A model generated the notes under the pieces. It searched no databases. It worked only from the letters and a program-made list of their open reading frames with translations, and was not told the origin of the DNA. The position numbers were made by a program, and so were the translations under genes. Shown piece by piece: positions 52,063 through 58,702 of a stretch of DNA of 64,000 nucleotides (positions are counted from its first letter, which is position 1; each line of letters starts with the position of its first letter). The stretch is from the NCBI GenBank assembly GCA_938036625.1, contig CALHQH010000046.1, forward strand, positions 11,034-75,033, given 5' to 3'. The DNA comes from an uncultured Candidatus Saccharibacteria bacterium. Lineage in GTDB: Bacteria; Patescibacteriota; Saccharimonadia; Saccharimonadales; Saccharimonadaceae.

Positions 52063-52458
52063 TTATGCAAGGTAATGCACCCAATTTTCTGTTGTGGAAT
52101 TATCATCCAGCTGGCCAATCGGTGCAACATACCACTGCGGCTGGGCACACTGCGGGCGGAAGCTCCCCAGCTTAGCCGTATATACCTCGGTGATGGCCGC
52201 GACTTCGTCCTCGCGGGCTTCGCGCACCGTGGTGTGGAGATAGACAGCCTGCTTCGCGTCATTCCACACCACAAACTCTGCCCGCCCAGTGCGAAAGGCA
52301 TTGTGCGAGTGGCGCGCCTCACGATCAGACAGCCAGGCAATCATATCCCCCACCCGGACAAAGTGCAGTGGCGTCACCAGCGGCGTGCGGTCGCGATTCA
52401 CCGTAGCCAGCGCACCAACTGGGACTGTATCGAGGATGTTTTGCGTCAGGGTATTCAT
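52063..52458 (-). CDS. pyridoxamine 5'-phosphate oxidase-like FMN-binding split-barrel protein
   Basis: VPVGALATVNRDRTPLVTPLHFV..AEFVVWND. 131 aa, general PNPOx-like pattern. Confidence 0.7.
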   Translation of the reverse strand: MNTLTQNILDTVPVGALATVNRDRTPLVTPLHFVRVGDMIAWLSDREARHSHNAFRTGRAEFVVWNDAKQAVYLHTTVREAREDEVAAITEVYTAKLGSFRPQCAQPQWYVAPIGQLDDNSTTENWVHYLA

Positions 52459-52516
52459 GATGGCTATATTCCTTTCGTATCTAATTTGCGAATATTATTT
52501 ATTGCATCAGCGGGCC

Positions 52517-52632
52517 GCTCTCGCTCCATTGCCAGACAAGAAAATATCTGGAGGCCAGCTACTTAGCAAGCGGAAGATTGCTGTAGTATTAATCTGGCCG
52601 GAACATTTTCGGTCTGGTGATGGAGCGAGAGC
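52517..52632 (+). repeat. structured repeat copy A (about 116 nt extended hairpin), just downstream of nrdB
   Basis: Outer stem GCTCTCGCTCCAT.GCCAGAC pairs with GTCTGG..ATGGAGCGAGAGC. Inner stems are GAAAAT/ATTTTC, GGCCAG/CTGGCC and AGCAA/TTGCT, the last with loop GCGGAAGA. Confidence 0.7.
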
Positions 52633-52681
52633 TCTTGTAAGGCCAGTAGAATTAAGACTTTTCTGTTCTTGCCAATATCTG

Positions 52682-53659
52682 CTACTTCGTCGTATTCACC
52701 TCATAACTCGTATTGGTACTCTCGAAGAAGTTCACCAGCTCCAGCGTGTCGTTGGCGGCGGCCATCCACTTGGCTGGGTTGGTGACGTTGTACTCTGGCT
52801 CAAAGCCCAGCTCTTCCAGCCGCCGGTCGGTCATGTACATCACATATTGGTTGACGTAGTCGGCGTTGAGGCCCAGGATACCACGCGGCAGCATGTCTTT
52901 GTTATACGCCTTTTCGAGCTCAACGGCTTCCAGGATCAGGCTGCGGATTTCGTCGGCAAATTCCTCGGTTTGTAGATCTGGGTTTTCGTGCAGAATCGTC
53001 AGTAGCAGGTTAATGCCAAACTCCAGGTGTAGATTTTCATCCTTCGTCACCCAGTCGAGCAGCGTGCCGACGTTGCGCAGCAGATTGCGCCGGCGGAAGC
53101 TCATCCCCACCATAAAGCCACTGTAGAACCAGATCCCCTCTAGCACGATATTATACGCCACCAGGTTGCGCACAAAATCCTTCTTGCCCTCCAGCGTCGT
53201 CACATCCGGGCGCTCCTCCATCATGCGCGTAACGTATTTGGTCTGGAAGGCAGCTTTATCGGCCAGGGATTTTTTGCCCCAGCCGGCGGCATAAATTTCC
53301 TCACGGTCAAACGGGAAGGTCTCGATAATATACTCGAACGTCATAAAGTGATTGGCCTCTTCCCACATCTGCTTCGAAAGATACAGGTGGCACTCGGCGG
53401 CATTAACACAGGGGTAAATACCAAAAGCCAGCGATTTATTAATCAGCAGCTCGTTGGGATTAAGGTAGCTAATCACCGTCTTCAGGGCATGCTTTTCGTC
53501 CTCGCTCAATTTCTCAAAATCGGCCAAATCCTGGCTTAGCTGCACCTCATTGGGGAACCACGTGTTAGCCACCGCTTGGTTGTATAAGCGGTACGCCCAG
53601 TCATAGCGCACCGGCTTGAGCTGCAAGCCATCGCGTACGCCTGATCCTAGAATGCCCAT
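52682..53659 (-). CDS. nrdB: ribonucleotide reductase small subunit, class Ic-like (Phe at the radical-Tyr position)
   Basis: Metal ligand pattern is E70, E101-x-x-H104, LEGIWF and KDENLH. Residue H104+4 is F108. AAGGAGG RBS. Confidence 0.85.
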   Translation of the reverse strand: MGILGSGVRDGLQLKPVRYDWAYRLYNQAVANTWFPNEVQLSQDLADFEKLSEDEKHALKTVISYLNPNELLINKSLAFGIYPCVNAAECHLYLSKQMWEEANHFMTFEYIIETFPFDREEIYAAGWGKKSLADKAAFQTKYVTRMMEERPDVTTLEGKKDFVRNLVAYNIVLEGIWFYSGFMVGMSFRRRNLLRNVGTLLDWVTKDENLHLEFGINLLLTILHENPDLQTEEFADEIRSLILEAVELEKAYNKDMLPRGILGLNADYVNQYVMYMTDRRLEELGFEPEYNVTNPAKWMAAANDTLELVNFFESTNTSYEVNTTK

Positions 53660-53784
53660 TATTACCTCCTTGTTGTATTACTTAATAATTTCGTATCTAA
53701 TAATTTTTACCAGTCGTATTCTACTCGTCATATCCCCCGACACGTTCTCCATCTTCTGGACTAGCCTCTGGATACTAGATAATC

Positions 53785-54147
53785 CTACGATTCTGGATCA
53801 ATCGATGGCGTCTCGTCAGATATTTGACCATCCTGCTCTTCAGCACTCGCATCAGTGCCAAAAATATCGAGCTCCGGCTGGGTCCACCCTTGAGGCTTAT
53901 CGGGGTGGTATATATTCCCCATACCTCGGCTATCCCACGACGGGTCACTTGCCGTTACGTCGCCAGGCACAGCGTGGACATCGCTGTCTTTGTGCGTGCT
54001 ATTCACCCCCTCCAGTGCTGCAGCGCCAACACCACGGCTCACACTCAAGGTGGCCAATTCGGCTCGCTCTGAGAGCGGCAACTTAGCAAAGTCTATCATG
54101 TCTTGCTCACCCCTCATCCCTGCTACTGAGGTTTTTTCTTCGTACAT
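53785..54147 (-). CDS. acidic 120-aa ORF between nrdA and nrdB, in frame with nrdA
   Basis: The junction on the minus strand reads nrdA ..GAG GAG TAG ATT ATG. The AGGAGGAG at the end of nrdA could serve as an RBS. First codon positions are G-rich. No Cys, no motif recognised. Confidence 0.5.
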   Translation of the reverse strand: MYEEKTSVAGMRGEQDMIDFAKLPLSERAELATLSVSRGVGAAALEGVNSTHKDSDVHAVPGDVTASDPSWDSRGMGNIYHPDKPQGWTQPELDIFGTDASAEEQDGQISDETPSIDPES

Positions 54148-54150
54148 AAT

Positions 54151-56583
54151 CTACTCCTCCTTCCCTTCCTCTTGTTTCTTGCGTGTGCGGTAGAAGCCAC
54201 CAAAGCCCACGCGCTTCGCATCTTGGTGGAGTTTTTGCTCGGTTTTGTTAGCGCGAATGGAGACCTGCTCGGACTGGTGGCGTGGCTTCACGTGCAAATA
54301 ATACGTCGTTTTCAGGCCGCGACGCCAGGCTTCACTGTAGATCGTAATATACTCCTCGATATTACGCGATTCTAAATACATATTGCGGCTAATCGCTTGA
54401 TCGACCCACTTCTGAGCGCGGGCCGCCACCTCGATGAAGGCGTAGGGGCTCAGCTGAAAGCTCGTCTTATACACATCGCGCACCGCCTGAGGGATCTGCT
54501 CCATGTGCTGGATGTCGCCTTGGTTAGTAAGCAGCTCATCCTTGAGCTCCTCCCACAAGCCGAGGGCTTTGAGCTTGCGCACCAGGTTAGCATTAACCTC
54601 GAGGAATTTGCCATTGAGCGTGCTCCGGCTAAAGATCTGGCTAAATTGCGGGTCGATCCCTGGAGTGGTGCCCGTCACGTGCGAGATATTGGCGGTAGGC
54701 GCGATGGCCATCAGCGTGGCATTGCGCATGCCGCGTTGCACCTTGGAGCGGAGCGCCTCCCAGTCGAGGCGGCGAGTCGTGTTAATTGCTACTACTTCAC
54801 CCCGCTGCGCGCCAAGCCGGTCGATCGTGTCGATAGGCAATTCCCCCTTGCTCCAGCCACTGCCAGCAAAGTTAGGATAGCTACCGCGCGTCACTGCCAG
54901 CTCGGCCGACTCATCGATGGCATAGTAGCTAATAAACTCCGCCAATTGGTCAACCAGCTCATACGCCGCCTCAGATTCGTAGCTCAGCTCGAGCTTCTCT
55001 AGCACATCAGCCAGGCCCATAAAGCCCAGGCCAATCGCCCGGTTTTGCAGATTGCTATTCATCGCTTCAGGGATGGGTGTTGTGGTAATGTCTACAAGGT
55101 TATCAAGCTGGCGCGTGGCCGAGCGCGTGGCCTGCTCGAGCCGTGGCCAATCCCACGTCTTGGTCGCGTCATCCAGGAAAGCGCTGAGGTTAATACTCAC
55201 CAGATTACACACCGCAATATTGTGCTCATCTTGCGGCAAGGTGATCTCTGTACAGAGGTTGCTGAGGTGAATAGTACCAGTGTTATTGTTAAGCGCCCGG
55301 AGATTGATGGCGTCCTTCCAGGTGAGCCATGGGTGGCCGGTCGCCTGCAAACTACTCAGAATTCTGTGGAATTGCTGGCGCGCAGGTAGCTTGTCATAAG
55401 CGCGTAGCTTACCCGCTTCGGCCTGGGTGATGTAATACGCATACCGCTTAGCGAAAGCCGCACCATACAGCTCGCTCAAGTCACTCACCTCAGCTGGGTC
55501 AAAGAGATACCAGTCTTCATCAGCCTGCACCCGGCGCATAAATTCATCGCTAATAAACACCGCCGTGTCGAGGTAGCGTGTCCGCAAATACGGGTCGCCG
55601 GAGTTTGAGCGTAGGTCGATGAATTCTCTAAAATCGATGTGCCAGTTCTCCATATACACCGCTGCCGCACCCATCTTTTTGCCTTTGCGCGACACCGCAA
55701 ACAGTGCCGTGTCGACCATCTTCATAAAGGGGATTGGCCCGGTACTTGTTGTATTAGTTGTCTTGACGGGGCTACCCGCCGCCCGCAGCTTCGTAAAACT
55801 GACACCGATACCGCCTGTCCCTTTAGCAATCCACATTGTATCGCGCACACTCTTGGCAATCGACTCCATATCATCCTGCACTTCCATGACGAAGCAGTTG
55901 CTCAGCTGCGGGAACAACCCACCAGCATTGACGCGAGTGCTACCGCCCGGGCTGTATTCGAGATTAGCCATGTGCTGGTAAAACTCAATGGCTGCCTCGG
56001 TGGGGTGCTCCTCGTTGTAACTCAGTCCCATGGCAATGCGCATGGTGGTAAACTGCGGCACTTCGAGCGGCTCACCGTTTTGCTTGCGCAGGGCGTAGCG
56101 ATTGCGGTTGGTCACCACGCCAAGATATTTACTCAGTCTGTCTTTACTCGGGTCAAGTGCAGCAGCCAGGTGCTCGAGGTCGAAGATTGTCTCATCTTGC
56201 ATGCGCGGGTCGAGCAAACCGTCGGCCACCGCCTGGCGAATATAACGCGGGAAGGCCTCCCTATGACGCTGGCGCAGCTCTTCATCAGTGGTATATACGC
56301 CCAGCAAATCGCGGTAGATCGTGCCCAGCAGCAGGCGCGCCGCAATCGTATCGTAGTCTGGGTCATCCTTGATGTTCTGCACCACCGTCTGGATGAGCGT
56401 CTCTTCCAGCTGCTTGGTCGTCATCCCATCAAAGAGCGTCAGCTGTAGCTCGCGAGCGATCTGCACAATCTTCTGTAACGGATCGGCCAGCCCCTGGCTT
56501 GCCGCCAACAACGTGGCATTTATCTTGGTTGTGTCGAATGGCTCGGTCGTGCCATCGCGCTTGGTAATATGAATTGTCATCAT
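54151..56583 (-). CDS. nrdA: ribonucleotide reductase catalytic subunit, class I, with N-terminal ATP-cone
   Basis: ATP-cone ITKRDGTTEPFDTTKI. Active-site motifs LSNCFVME, NLCTEITLP, AVCNLVSINL and TTYYLH. SD AAGGAG..GGAGGG before ATGATG at 56583. Confidence 0.95.
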   Translation of the reverse strand: MMTIHITKRDGTTEPFDTTKINATLLAASQGLADPLQKIVQIARELQLTLFDGMTTKQLEETLIQTVVQNIKDDPDYDTIAARLLLGTIYRDLLGVYTTDEELRQRHREAFPRYIRQAVADGLLDPRMQDETIFDLEHLAAALDPSKDRLSKYLGVVTNRNRYALRKQNGEPLEVPQFTTMRIAMGLSYNEEHPTEAAIEFYQHMANLEYSPGGSTRVNAGGLFPQLSNCFVMEVQDDMESIAKSVRDTMWIAKGTGGIGVSFTKLRAAGSPVKTTNTTSTGPIPFMKMVDTALFAVSRKGKKMGAAAVYMENWHIDFREFIDLRSNSGDPYLRTRYLDTAVFISDEFMRRVQADEDWYLFDPAEVSDLSELYGAAFAKRYAYYITQAEAGKLRAYDKLPARQQFHRILSSLQATGHPWLTWKDAINLRALNNNTGTIHLSNLCTEITLPQDEHNIAVCNLVSINLSAFLDDATKTWDWPRLEQATRSATRQLDNLVDITTTPIPEAMNSNLQNRAIGLGFMGLADVLEKLELSYESEAAYELVDQLAEFISYYAIDESAELAVTRGSYPNFAGSGWSKGELPIDTIDRLGAQRGEVVAINTTRRLDWEALRSKVQRGMRNATLMAIAPTANISHVTGTTPGIDPQFSQIFSRSTLNGKFLEVNANLVRKLKALGLWEELKDELLTNQGDIQHMEQIPQAVRDVYKTSFQLSPYAFIEVAARAQKWVDQAISRNMYLESRNIEEYITIYSEAWRRGLKTTYYLHVKPRHQSEQVSIRANKTEQKLHQDAKRVGFGGFYRTRKKQEEGKEE

Positions 56584-56684
56584 CCCTCCCCTTGGGCTCC
56601 TTACTATACGGTGCACAAAACCAGCCACCAGGGCACGCCTGGAGCCAAGCTGTATTGTTTGTCTCTCCCGTGTTTATGTGTGCT

Positions 56685-56740
56685 CGCTATATATGTAGCG
56701 TCTATCCCCTACTATAGACGCCAGATGTGGTGCTTGGCAA
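56685..56740 (-). promoter_or_regulatory. candidate nrdA promoter (TTGCCA-N18-TATAGT) overlapped by two dyads
   Basis: On the minus strand, -35 is at 56740..56735 and -10 at 56716..56711. The dyads are GCGTCTAT-N8-ATAGACGC (56698-56721) and CGCTATATAT-G-TAGCG (56685-56700). Confidence 0.45.
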
Positions 56741-56814
56741 GGGGTTTTGTGAAAACTACAACCGATTTTGCGAGCGACCTCTGTGGGTGCTGGTGGCACA
56801 CCATGGCCTTGGGT

Positions 56815-56887
56815 AAAAAATATCTGGAGGCCAGCGTTAGTGCAAGCGGGTAGAGTTCTATTGCACTATCCGTGCCAGAATATTATA
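56815..56887 (+). repeat. structured repeat copy C (truncated; lacks the outer stem)
   Basis: AAAATATCTGGAGGCCAGC..GCAAGCGG is shared with copy A. The apical stem is AGTGCAA/TTGCACT. Confidence 0.6.
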
Positions 56888-56906
56888 TAAAGCAACAGCT
56901 ATGCCA

Positions 56907-57007
56907 CTCTATCACCAGACCGAAAATGTTCCGGCCAGATTATACTATAGTGATTTTCCGCTCGCTGAGTGGCTGGCCTCCAAATATTTTCTTGTCTGGT
57001 GATAGAG
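56907..57007 (-). repeat. structured repeat copy B (about 101 nt), inverted relative to copy A
   Basis: The reverse complement aligns with copy A at roughly 85% identity. Perfect 14-bp outer stem CTCTATCACCAGAC/GTCTGGTGATAGAG. Confidence 0.7.
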
Positions 57008-57090
57008 CAGCTTGGTGTATAGTAAGTAATTTTGATAATGGCTTACCGCCACTAGTGCAAACTATCTCTCGCACTACTCCAATGGAGTGT

Positions 57091-57232: not shown

Positions 57233-58702
57233 CTAAGAGCGCCCATTACGCTCAGACACCTCCCGACACTCCTGCCGGAGCCGCTCGAGAGGGGCATAAT
57301 CATCATGGTACGGCGGCTGGCTAGCGAAGGGAGCTGGCTGGTGAGCGGTGCCACCACCGTACGTCGCCACGACATTAGTATATTCCCAGCCATCTGCCCG
57401 CTCGTAGCGGAAGCTCCCCTGCCCCAATAGAGCAGCATACGGCGCATCCTGAGCAGCAAACAGTGGCTGGCAGGCTGGCTGGCGGCTGGCAATCATATTA
57501 ACCACCACACGGGCGTGCGGGCGAAGATGCCGCTTGAGTGCGGTAGCATACTCTTGTGTTGCCAGCGAGGTGGGTACATCGCCATCGTTATAGACATCAA
57601 CGAGGACGATATCGTACTGCTCGGTGCTGCGCTCGAGGAAGACGCGCGCATCTTGGAAGATCGGCCGCACATTGGCTGGGTCGCGATAATAAAAATACTG
57701 GCGAGCAATCGGCAAGAGCCCTGGATCAATCTCTACTACATCGATCTGACTCTGCGGATAGCGCTGGGCAAGGAGGCGCGGCACCGTGAAGGTCCCACCA
57801 CCCAGCACCAAAATGCGCTGGCGCTGCGGGGCTTGCTCCACCGCCTGCATCATCTGACGCGTGTACCAAAATGGCAGCTGCTGCGGCTGCCCGACTACCA
57901 CACCAGACTGCACGCCGGCCGGGCCACTGGCAATCCCGCGGATAATCGCACCATCCTGCCGATGCCATTGCTGGAGTGTGTAGTGCGCCGCCGCGGTATC
58001 GATCGTCTGCGCAGCCTGGGCTCGCACCACTGGTGCCACGCGATAGCCCAGCGCCAAGCCCACACACAGCACACTCACCACCACGCGCCACTGCCAACGC
58101 TGGCCTGGCACCACCAGCCAGCTGGCTAGCACGAGCAGGCTAATAAGCACCACCAACACGTCGTGAATCCCCAGCCAACCAAACAGGAAAAACCCCGCCG
58201 CAAAGGTGCCAACGATCCCACCAATCGAATTCACCGCACTCAGCGACGCCACCGACCGCCCCGTTCGCGCTAGCGTCTCTGTCTGCCGCTCCACCAGGTA
58301 GGGACTCACTGCTCCCAGCACCAGGCTGGTTGGTGCAAAGAGCAGGCTTGCCGCCACCGTAGCCTGCAGACGAATATCGATCGGCAATTGCGCCACCCAC
58401 CGCAGTATATCGTGGTATTGGCACAGCATTGTTAGTACCAGCAGTGCCGCACCAAGCAGCAGCCAGGCCACATCGCCATCGCGCGAGCGTGCATCGGCCA
58501 ACACGCCGCCCAGCCAGTATCCCAGGCTCATCGCTGCAATAATGACACCAATAATGCTCGCCCACACATAGGTCGACGCCCCCACCACTGGCGACATCAC
58601 CCGCGCTGCCACCAGCTCAAACACCATCACACAAAACCCCGCCACAAACGCAATCACCAAACGTCGATACGGTAGCGGCATTATCAGTCGTTTCAGTTTC
58701 AT
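57233..58702 (-). CDS. fused polytopic membrane domain plus spermidine synthase-like methyltransferase-fold domain
   Basis: About 7 N-terminal TM helices, then ILVLGGGTFTVPR..VVEIDPGL..DIVLVDVYNDGDVP. Confidence 0.7.
   Translation of the reverse strand: MKLKRLIMPLPYRRLVIAFVAGFCVMVFELVAARVMSPVVGASTYVWASIIGVIIAAMSLGYWLGGVLADARSRDGDVAWLLLGAALLVLTMLCQYHDILRWVAQLPIDIRLQATVAASLLFAPTSLVLGAVSPYLVERQTETLARTGRSVASLSAVNSIGGIVGTFAAGFFLFGWLGIHDVLVVLISLLVLASWLVVPGQRWQWRVVVSVLCVGLALGYRVAPVVRAQAAQTIDTAAAHYTLQQWHRQDGAIIRGIASGPAGVQSGVVVGQPQQLPFWYTRQMMQAVEQAPQRQRILVLGGGTFTVPRLLAQRYPQSQIDVVEIDPGLLPIARQYFYYRDPANVRPIFQDARVFLERSTEQYDIVLVDVYNDGDVPTSLATQEYATALKRHLRPHARVVVNMIASRQPACQPLFAAQDAPYAALLGQGSFRYERADGWEYTNVVATYGGGTAHQPAPFASQPPYHDDYAPLERLRQECREVSERNGRS

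Follow-up and report, generated by a model that had tools for sequence, protein, structure and literature searches.

Imperfect-palindromic repeats around the nrd operon of a Candidatus Saccharibacteria bacterium: a probable clade-confined family with a conserved centre and locus-specific arms

The ERIC/IRU sequences of Enterobacteria are imperfect palindromes of ~127 bp, and the Correia elements of Neisseria (NEMIS/CREE) end in conserved 26-bp terminal inverted repeats and are flanked by a duplicated TA target. REPs consist of units of 20-40 nt with a conserved 5' tetranucleotide, occur in hundreds of copies and are associated with a RAYT gene, and in the attC sites of integrons the outer R''/R' boxes (RYYYAAC / GTTRRRY) are conserved and the centre varies. 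We describe here a further palindromic element from a 64,000-nt stretch of the genome of an uncultured Candidatus Saccharibacteria bacterium (GenBank assembly GCA_938036625.1, contig CALHQH010000046.1, positions 11,034 to 75,033), referred to below as the window; the region has ~55% G+C and is part of a bacterial chromosome. Three copies of the element, A, B and C, bracket the operon nrdA-orf120-nrdB, which encodes ribonucleotide reductase (RNR), and a preliminary description had read them mainly as an RNA element tied to RNR expression. They are best described as a new, clade-specific family of dispersed imperfect palindromes in which the centre is conserved, the arms are particular to each locus and the core has inverted repeatedly, and we consider it probable (roughly 0.6) that A, B and C are members of such a small, clade-confined family of ~120-bp repeats, incidental to nrd.

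The copies are real and statistically solid; the RNR-tied RNA reading is not supported. All three were recovered, where the preliminary description had placed them, by repeat search and a covariance model. The repeat search gave inverted A-B arms at 52523-52589/56942-57008 (84%) and 52590-52625/56907-56942 (97%) and a direct A-C repeat at 52541-52573/56817-56849, A and B were 90% identical over 90 nt by blastn, and a core 19-mer and 24-mer occurred three and two times against 0.04 and 0.00 expected. The decayed copy C was also detected by nhmmer (E 2.8e-5), and an intact counterpart with its own outer stem stands at the same site in a related locus (L030, 6233-6354, 94 bits). With filters off, the covariance model found only A, B and C in the window, the next best match reaching 13 bits, in agreement with the earlier statement that no further copies occur there. 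The details on which that statement's authorship had built its case, namely a 31-nt run identical between A and B, the change from CUCCAU/AUGGAG to CUCUAU/AUAGAG, the change from UG to CA and the AGUGCAA/UUGCACU stem of C, are all readable in the sequence. The proposal that each copy folds as a long hairpin held for A and B (z about -9; A on the plus strand, z -9.0) but not for C, which has no significant fold. Fold energies were -64.4 kcal/mol for A on the plus strand and -58.8 on the minus strand, and -48.9 and -44.3, respectively, for B, which is the more stable on the strand opposite to that chosen earlier.

Each full copy consists of an outer stem, P1, of 17-28 bp around a common, asymmetric and near-invariant core of ~75 nt. 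The core reads AAGAAAATATCTGGAGGCCAGC, an apical stem-loop that varies and carries a GCGG-containing loop and a CTCTrT motif, and then (A/T)TCTGGCCGGAACATTTTCG; the 3' half is given as CTGGCCGGAACATTTTCG in our description of the family. At least 12 sequence classes of P1 surround this one core, complementary within every copy. The outer 10-18 bp of the P1 arms are unrelated between these classes, which are specific to their loci, and the inner 10 bp or fewer are common only within subfamilies. In a structure alignment of 28 representatives, 96.4% of the cells of P1 and the inner helices P2 and P3 were paired, a share that dropped to 77% when columns were shuffled and to 33-45% when partners were slid. 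Two-sided changes were seen in all 19 P1 pairs, and the P1 covariation score of 0.562 compares with 0.191 in shuffles (none of 500 reached 0.562), so that the compensatory changes first noticed among three copies are now strongly documented for the outer stem with ~180 further copies. P2 (GAAAAU/AUUUUC + UCU/GGA) and P3 (GGCCAG/CUGGCC) are invariant except for a few changes to U.G, and are uninformative for covariation.

A scan of 185,579 species-representative genomes for the exact 19-mer GGCCGGAACATTTTCGGTC gave 77 loci, 70 of them in metagenome-assembled genomes of Candidatus Saccharibacteria (TM7) with genomes of ~1 Mb; the other seven are chance matches in other phyla, where the element is not present. 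Metagenomes scanned with the same 19-mer yielded 64 further loci. By covariance model the genome loci hold 104 copies and the metagenome loci ~75, amounting to ~180 copies in 134 related loci and at least five spacers, and these counts are lower bounds, since only the surroundings of exact 19-mer matches were fetched. At least 6-10 copies are detectable per ~1-Mb genome, in one clade of Saccharibacteria only. They occupy three gene neighbourhoods in relatives, around nrd, a type IV pilin/PilD cluster and a recombinase/NDK spacer. Apart from the nrd spacers, copies separate a bPH-SurA-pilin operon from o140, a divergent gene of 140 aa (locus II); they also lie between pilin and the prepilin peptidase PilD, together with a degenerate neighbour (locus P); between an XerC/D-like (tyrosine) recombinase, Int, and NDK (locus III); near an HxlR regulator (locus IV); and upstream of a spermidine-synthase-like gene (locus V). 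Every copy is intergenic, many stand where promoters diverge (bPH/o140, Int/NDK), and most flank genes unrelated to nrd. The preliminary description had named many copies at other loci, with target-site duplications, as grounds for giving up its own reading; such copies exist, without the duplications.

On contigs carrying several loci the order is A, 80-90 kb, II/P, 6-10 kb, III/IV. All detected copies fall into three clusters (nrd; type IV pilin/PilD; recombinase/NDK/HxlR) within ~95 kb of these ~1-Mb genomes, as seen on contigs CAMIHP010000001.1, CAUQYS010000003.1, CAUQNE010000001.1, CAUUJX010000001.1 and CAJPUN010000001.1, and the other 59 kb of the window hold no copy. The layout may reflect true clustering, or it may arise because only the surroundings of exact 19-mer matches were sampled. 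A strongly diverged copy type (model positions 2-86, core AAGAAAATTTGCGAAGGCCAG..CTGGCCGGATAGTATG) was also seen in front of the prepilin peptidase gene, at ~200 nt from the P copy, and may be an old, decayed member of the family. No element-like sequence was found in phages, plasmids, Escherichia coli genomes or viral contigs. A phage or plasmid origin of the region was rejected, 5.5 kb of it giving no megablast match to phages or plasmids, and viral carriers of the element were likewise rejected: five 17-mer matches in IMG/VR are chance matches without a covariance-model match, and a 20-mer of the 5' core gave none. We found no account of an interspersed repeat family in Saccharibacteria or other bacteria of the Candidate Phyla Radiation (CPR) in the searchable literature.

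Outgroup Saccharibacteria have the same gene orders, with PNPOx and SurA proteins 60-66% identical, and their spacers are short: 10-19 nt between nrdB and PNPOx (~220 nt in this clade), 119 nt between Int and NDK (280 nt) and 111 nt between pilin and PilD (548 nt), element-bearing spacers being 160-440 nt longer than those of the nearest outgroups. The covariance model, with filters off, found no element in 137 kb of outgroup sequence. Because the outgroups keep the gene order with short spacers and no element, the elements are read here as clade-specific insertions into formerly compact operons. In the 14-nt flanks of the nine representatives (of 13) that could be parsed, the longest common words were 2-4 nt, that is, no target-site duplication was evident, and no autonomous partner insertion sequence or transposase with the same ends was found in ~1.2 Mb of fetched loci.

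Close relatives differ by gain, loss and decay of copies, and the nrd loci vary accordingly. Among 40 distinct spacers between the spermidine-synthase-like (SpmSyn) gene and nrdA, 326-671 nt long, B is present in 14, only C-type copies in 10 (three intact, seven partial) and no copy in 16; B is missing from 26 (65%), and any copy from 40%. B is absent from L001-L006. The bracket of A and B around nrd does recur in other genomes (for example L008, L014 and L031). Copy A, which is antisense to the operon in most genomes, stands at the same site and in the same orientation in 61 related loci. Eight loci have instead a copy, A2, with the same core, a different P1 and the sense orientation, their flanking proteins being 95-100% identical. 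The nrdB-PNPOx spacer has, in effect, two unrelated alleles, A or A2 (A2 for example in L020 at 2428-2659, L030 and L054), which suggests that whole spacers have been replaced by recombination. The possibility raised earlier that the inverted A/B pair could invert the 4.3-kb nrd segment finds no counterpart, the segment between A and B being collinear in all 61 loci.

Inversion was seen on a smaller scale. The orientation of each copy was expressed in the frame of the flanking genes and called from the asymmetric core, not from P1, because alignments fitted by the covariance model lean towards the structure. Between genomes the core is inverted relative to identical flanks at three loci: its two orientations number 13 and 7 at bPH/o140 in the genome set (~6 and 6 in the metagenome set), 6 and 5 at pilin-PilD (3 and 6) and 5 and 3 at Int/NDK (4 and 2). 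In the clearest pair, L078 and L015, the flanks are 97.7% identical, both P1 arms are collinear, and the intervening ~75 nt of one locus are the reverse complement of those of the other. The wobble positions of inner P1 at locus II move with the core, so that the exchange would have taken place in the perfectly complementary outer P1. Orientation follows relatedness only partly. The closest pairs of opposite orientation have flanks 94-98% identical (at most 97.7%), and flank pairs at least 99% identical, of which there are few, all have the same orientation. The core inversions look like recurrent, rare evolutionary events, and rapid phase variation is unlikely, as no opposite orientations occur among these few near-identical flanks. 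For the window copies A and B both orientations were not found, and a junction-specific pattern for a flipped A had no match in metagenomes that contain the organism.

Constraint is concentrated in the core. Over 36 A-type haplotypes nucleotide diversity was 0.014 in the 5' core, a part not used to find the loci in this comparison, against 0.20 at third codon positions, 0.19 in the apical region, 0.10-0.12 in adjacent spacers and ~0.05 in the P1 arms. A variant core with a 2-nt insertion, ATATTCTAGAAGG in place of ATATCTGGAGG, occurs in L032 and L059 (both on contig CALHWD010000018.1), L039, L061 and L080. This variant and apical segments are common to neighbouring paralogues (II, IIb and P) of one genome and are not found in copy A of the same contig, and this distribution points to local gene conversion between copies.

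How the element compares with the known systems can now be stated. It resembles ERIC/IRU in its size, in being an imperfect palindrome with a conserved centre, in its intergenic and often co-transcribed position in either orientation, in its variable presence among relatives and in the lack of a known transposase or target-site duplication; unlike ERIC, it has a locus-specific outer stem, a far lower copy number, a clustered distribution and documented inversion of the core. Homology is not indicated, a blastn search of 28 Gb from 5,426 E. coli genomes (word size 11, E up to 0.01) giving no match. Correia elements and other miniature inverted-repeat transposable elements (MITEs) are likewise hairpin repeats of ~100-150 bp next to genes, often co-transcribed, polymorphic by insertion or deletion between strains and divided into subtypes by internal differences. 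The family shares with MITEs dispersed noncoding copies with presence/absence polymorphism, but its termini change from locus to locus and no target duplication was seen, so that a MITE/Correia-like element, although the closest of the roles first listed, describes it only in part. Like REPs in BIMEs and REPINs, the copies are intergenic palindromes that could stabilise upstream mRNA or attenuate transcription regardless of orientation; REP-type features were not seen, although no genome-wide RAYT search was made. Invertons such as fimS and the invertible promoters of Bacteroides, and the flip/flop termini of parvoviruses, also present a short segment between inverted repeats in two orientations; here the few pairs with near-identical flanks agree in orientation, the segment contains no promoter, and no common recombinase site is found. 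Integron attC sites are imperfect palindromes of 55-140 bp that bracket genes and keep structure more than sequence in part of the site, and a tyrosine recombinase adjoins one copy here. The integron reading was nevertheless rejected, since the architecture is reversed, with a conserved centre and variable arms that lack R''/R' boxes, and the bracketed genes are syntenic core genes rather than cassettes. Candidates for a parS-like site, a small open reading frame (ORF) and a type I toxin-antitoxin system were also discarded, for wrong architecture, for want of adjacent palindromic half-sites, or because no conserved start codon or inversion-surviving ORF was present.

We suggest that the family is spread and kept by DNA-level processes of long palindromes, that is, by recombination or gene conversion between copies, together with some mechanism of insertion. 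Recombination or template switching between the two arms could both flip the core and produce the compensatory changes. In quasi-palindromes, template switching or arm-to-arm conversion can give apparently compensatory changes and extend the arms; because of this, covariation alone is no proof of RNA, and the P1 covariation is also expected for a DNA palindrome. Copy A separates nrdB from the PNPOx-like gene that follows it in one transcription unit. If co-transcribed, in either orientation, it would set a hairpin (-59 to -64 kcal/mol) behind nrdB and ahead of PNPOx-pyrG-argS, and by analogy it may work like a REP hairpin: as in REP or ERIC, it could be a barrier to 3' exonucleases, a site for RNase III or a partial block to transcription, with no sequence-specific riboregulation of RNR.

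Several observations weigh against this account. The element termini are locus-specific, and neither target-site duplication nor transposase partner came to light. Copy number is low, and the same loci, in three clusters within ~95 kb, are occupied in most genomes, a pattern better suited to elements that have been retained than to a family in active transposition. On the model strand, G.U modestly outnumbers A.C. The locus-specific, self-complementary outer stem of a new copy is not accounted for by any mechanism shown here. Finally, the constraint on the core is unlike that of a decaying selfish relic: with diversity in the 5' core so far below its surroundings, the core is probably recognised by something, candidates being an enzyme that mobilises or recombines the element, a protein of the host, or an RNA partner.

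That last point is the starting point for readings in which the element has a function for the host. One possibility, which we regard as unlikely, is that the element is bound as DNA by a protein, the core halves GAAAAT..GGCCAG and CTGGCC..ATTTTC serving as inverted half-sites of an operator or architectural site for the nucleotide-acquisition and type IV pilus genes nrdAB, pyrG operon, NDK, pilin and PilD, so that orientation would be irrelevant and the outer stems a by-product of palindrome dynamics. A core constrained like non-synonymous sites, free orientation, the intergenic and often divergent-promoter positions and the clustering within ~95 kb would all fit, and the flanking genes may be read as a theme of nucleotide salvage and DNA uptake; yet 16 of the 40 nrdA-upstream spacers do without any copy, B and C decay freely, and the outgroups run the same operons without the element. 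Half-sites ~55 bp apart are, moreover, unusual for an operator, P1 complementarity is kept although double-stranded DNA binding has no need of it, and no candidate binding protein was found. We hold it quite unlikely that the element is instead a family of structured small RNAs (or a single-stranded DNA structure) on the model strand, with the core as an internal loop closed by P1. Structured RNAs are classically recognised by conserved, unpaired core nucleotides enclosed in a covarying stem, as here; the model strand scores ~120 bits against ~28 bits for its reverse, the one-sided changes in P2 and P3 of the 28 representatives are all to U.G, and P1 shows 47 distinct G.U states against 31 A.C (25 against 13 in class consensuses). 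The preliminary description had taken such G.U compatibility as an argument for an RNA fold, but with 31 A.C mismatch states, two strands that fold almost equally well and an orientation that is not conserved that argument is not supported. A consensus scan within and next to A, B and C revealed neither a sigma-70-like promoter nor an intrinsic terminator, the direction of the core relative to external promoters changes, A and A2 are antisense and sense in the same spacer, the sister clades lack the element, and covariation without selection on RNA is what template switching in a palindrome can yield. The element matches no described RNA family: the Rfam check proposed earlier (Rfam 15) gave no match in the window at gathering thresholds, the best sub-threshold match having 18.7 bits against a cut-off of 60.2. 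Two promoter candidates read by eye, TTGCTA-17-TATTTT on the reverse strand and a TATAAT-like motif before CTGGCCGG, were rejected as not conserved across classes.

The inversions themselves invite two further readings. A programmed invertible segment, controlling the flanking genes in the manner of an inverton (pilin operon against o140, recombinase against NDK), would account for precise inversion between inverted repeats at three loci (bPH/o140, pilin-PilD and Int/NDK) and for the position at two divergent gene pairs, one of them adjoining a tyrosine recombinase; pilus and other surface-structure genes are typical targets of phase variation. We find it very unlikely all the same, given that opposite orientations are separated by flanks only 94-98% identical while pairs at 99% or more agree, that A is unflipped in 61 loci and the metagenome scan for its flipped junction was empty, that the core has no promoter consensus or directional signal and NDK's own TATAAT remains outside the element, that the inverted repeats differ by locus with no common recombinase site evident, and that the Int-adjacent recombinase occurs also in outgroups without the element. 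A slower variant, to which we also attach little credence, is that the element is a domesticated structured module, unique to the clade, that a protein recognises and that acts as RNA, single-stranded DNA or a cruciform. Its asymmetric core would be under purifying selection at the level of the host, and inversion of the core between the locus-specific arms would act as a slow heritable switch; if true, the switch would act on type IV pilus and nucleotide-supply genes (pilin, PilD, NDK, nrdAB and the pyrG operon) that are central to the epibiotic lifestyle. The idea that began this study, a cis-regulatory or processing RNA dedicated to expression of nrdA-orf120-nrdB, is already contradicted by the distribution and is extremely improbable. 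It drew on the three copies that bracket the operon here, a bracket seen again in other genomes, but the same element stands at pilin, PilD, bPH/SurA, NDK, recombinase and HxlR genes, neither position and orientation nor co-occurrence with nrd is conserved (B in 14 of 40 spacers, no copy in 40% of them, none in outgroups), and A is swapped for the oppositely oriented A2 in some genomes.

The arrangement at nrdA bears on the same question. The copies do bracket nrd, as first described, but the operon is on the minus strand, so that A precedes the PNPOx-like gene, and B and C, B pointing towards nrdA and C away from it, lie upstream of a promoter-like site, TTGCCA-18-TATAGT at 56740-56711. This site, found by consensus scan, is the sole good one of the SpmSyn-nrdA spacer and lies inside a near-invariant block of ~200 nt next to nrdA. 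The predicted conserved control region of nrdA is this block between C and nrdA, not B or C. The block also contains two palindromes, GCGTCTAT..ATAGACGC, overlapping the -10 element, and CTACATATATAGCG, which resemble NrdR boxes by eye; a gene of the NrdR zinc-ribbon type was seen in the outgroup locus L160. Other features of the operon vary as well. The product of orf120 is acidic and of low complexity and matches nothing in Pfam or NCBIfam, and its called length differs between strains (95, 102 or 120 aa); the gene is not in outgroup Saccharibacteria, where the gap between nrdA and nrdB is 2-17 nt, and it looks like another clade-specific insertion into the nrd operon. In one outgroup strain (L157, 2645-6272) a DpnII-type restriction-modification cluster and an Abi_C gene lie directly upstream of nrdA, and its relative L156 is without them. 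The nrdB protein was found in 861 blocks of the assembly collection. Coordinates are collected in Table 1.

Table 1. Positions of the repeat copies, their parts and the surrounding genes (window coordinates, except where a locus number is given)
Feature	Position	Strand	Basis or remark
Copy A, full element	52514-52635	+ (model orientation; antisense to nrd operon)	covariance-model match, 119.8 bits
Copy A, P1 arms	52517-52537 / 52612-52632		
Copy A, 5' core	52538-52559		
Copy A, variable apical stem-loop	52560-52593		
Copy A, 3' core	52594-52611		
Copy B, full element	56897-57017	- (model orientation; towards nrdA)	covariance-model match, 120.5 bits
Copy B, P1 arms	56994-57011 / 56903-56920		
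Copy B, 5' core	56972-56993		
Copy B, apical	56939-56971		
Copy B, 3' core	56921-56938		
Copy C, decayed element	56814-56886	+	covariance-model match 56819-56884, 32.9 bits, model positions 30-93
Copy C, 5' core (kept)	56814-56835		
Copy C, apical stem (kept)	56836-56869		
Copy C, degenerate 3' core	56870-56886		3' P1 arm lost
argS, pyrG and 76-aa ORF		minus	ORF list and domain calls
PNPOx-like gene	52063-52458	minus	
nrdB-PNPOx intergenic spacer, 223 nt, carrying A	52459-52681	minus	
nrdB	52682-53659	minus	ORF; Pfam Ribonuc_red_sm
orf120	53785-54147	minus	ORF
nrdA	54151 to ~56583 (probable ATG start; longest ORF to 56628)	minus	Pfam Ribonuc_red_lgC/lgN, ATP-cone
Near-invariant block upstream of nrdA	56590-56790	minus	spacer alignment and promoter scan
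Spermidine-synthase-like (SpmSyn) gene	57233-58702	minus	
Diverged copy type	L022 3405-3491; L050 542-628; L069 4600-4686; L080 3339-3423		

In Saccharibacteria, as in other CPR bacteria, the genome is reduced to ~1 Mb and its spacers are very short; the family shows that palindromic repeats can still colonise such genomes and expand the spacers of compact operons. The uncommon architecture of the family makes it a natural system for the evolution of long palindromes by template switching, arm-to-arm recombination or gene conversion, and a caution against taking covariation in palindromic repeats to demonstrate a functional RNA. Around essential genes the copies provide markers that vary between strains, and the constrained core offers a concrete target for a search for a binding protein or a transcript in cultivable TM7 co-cultures.

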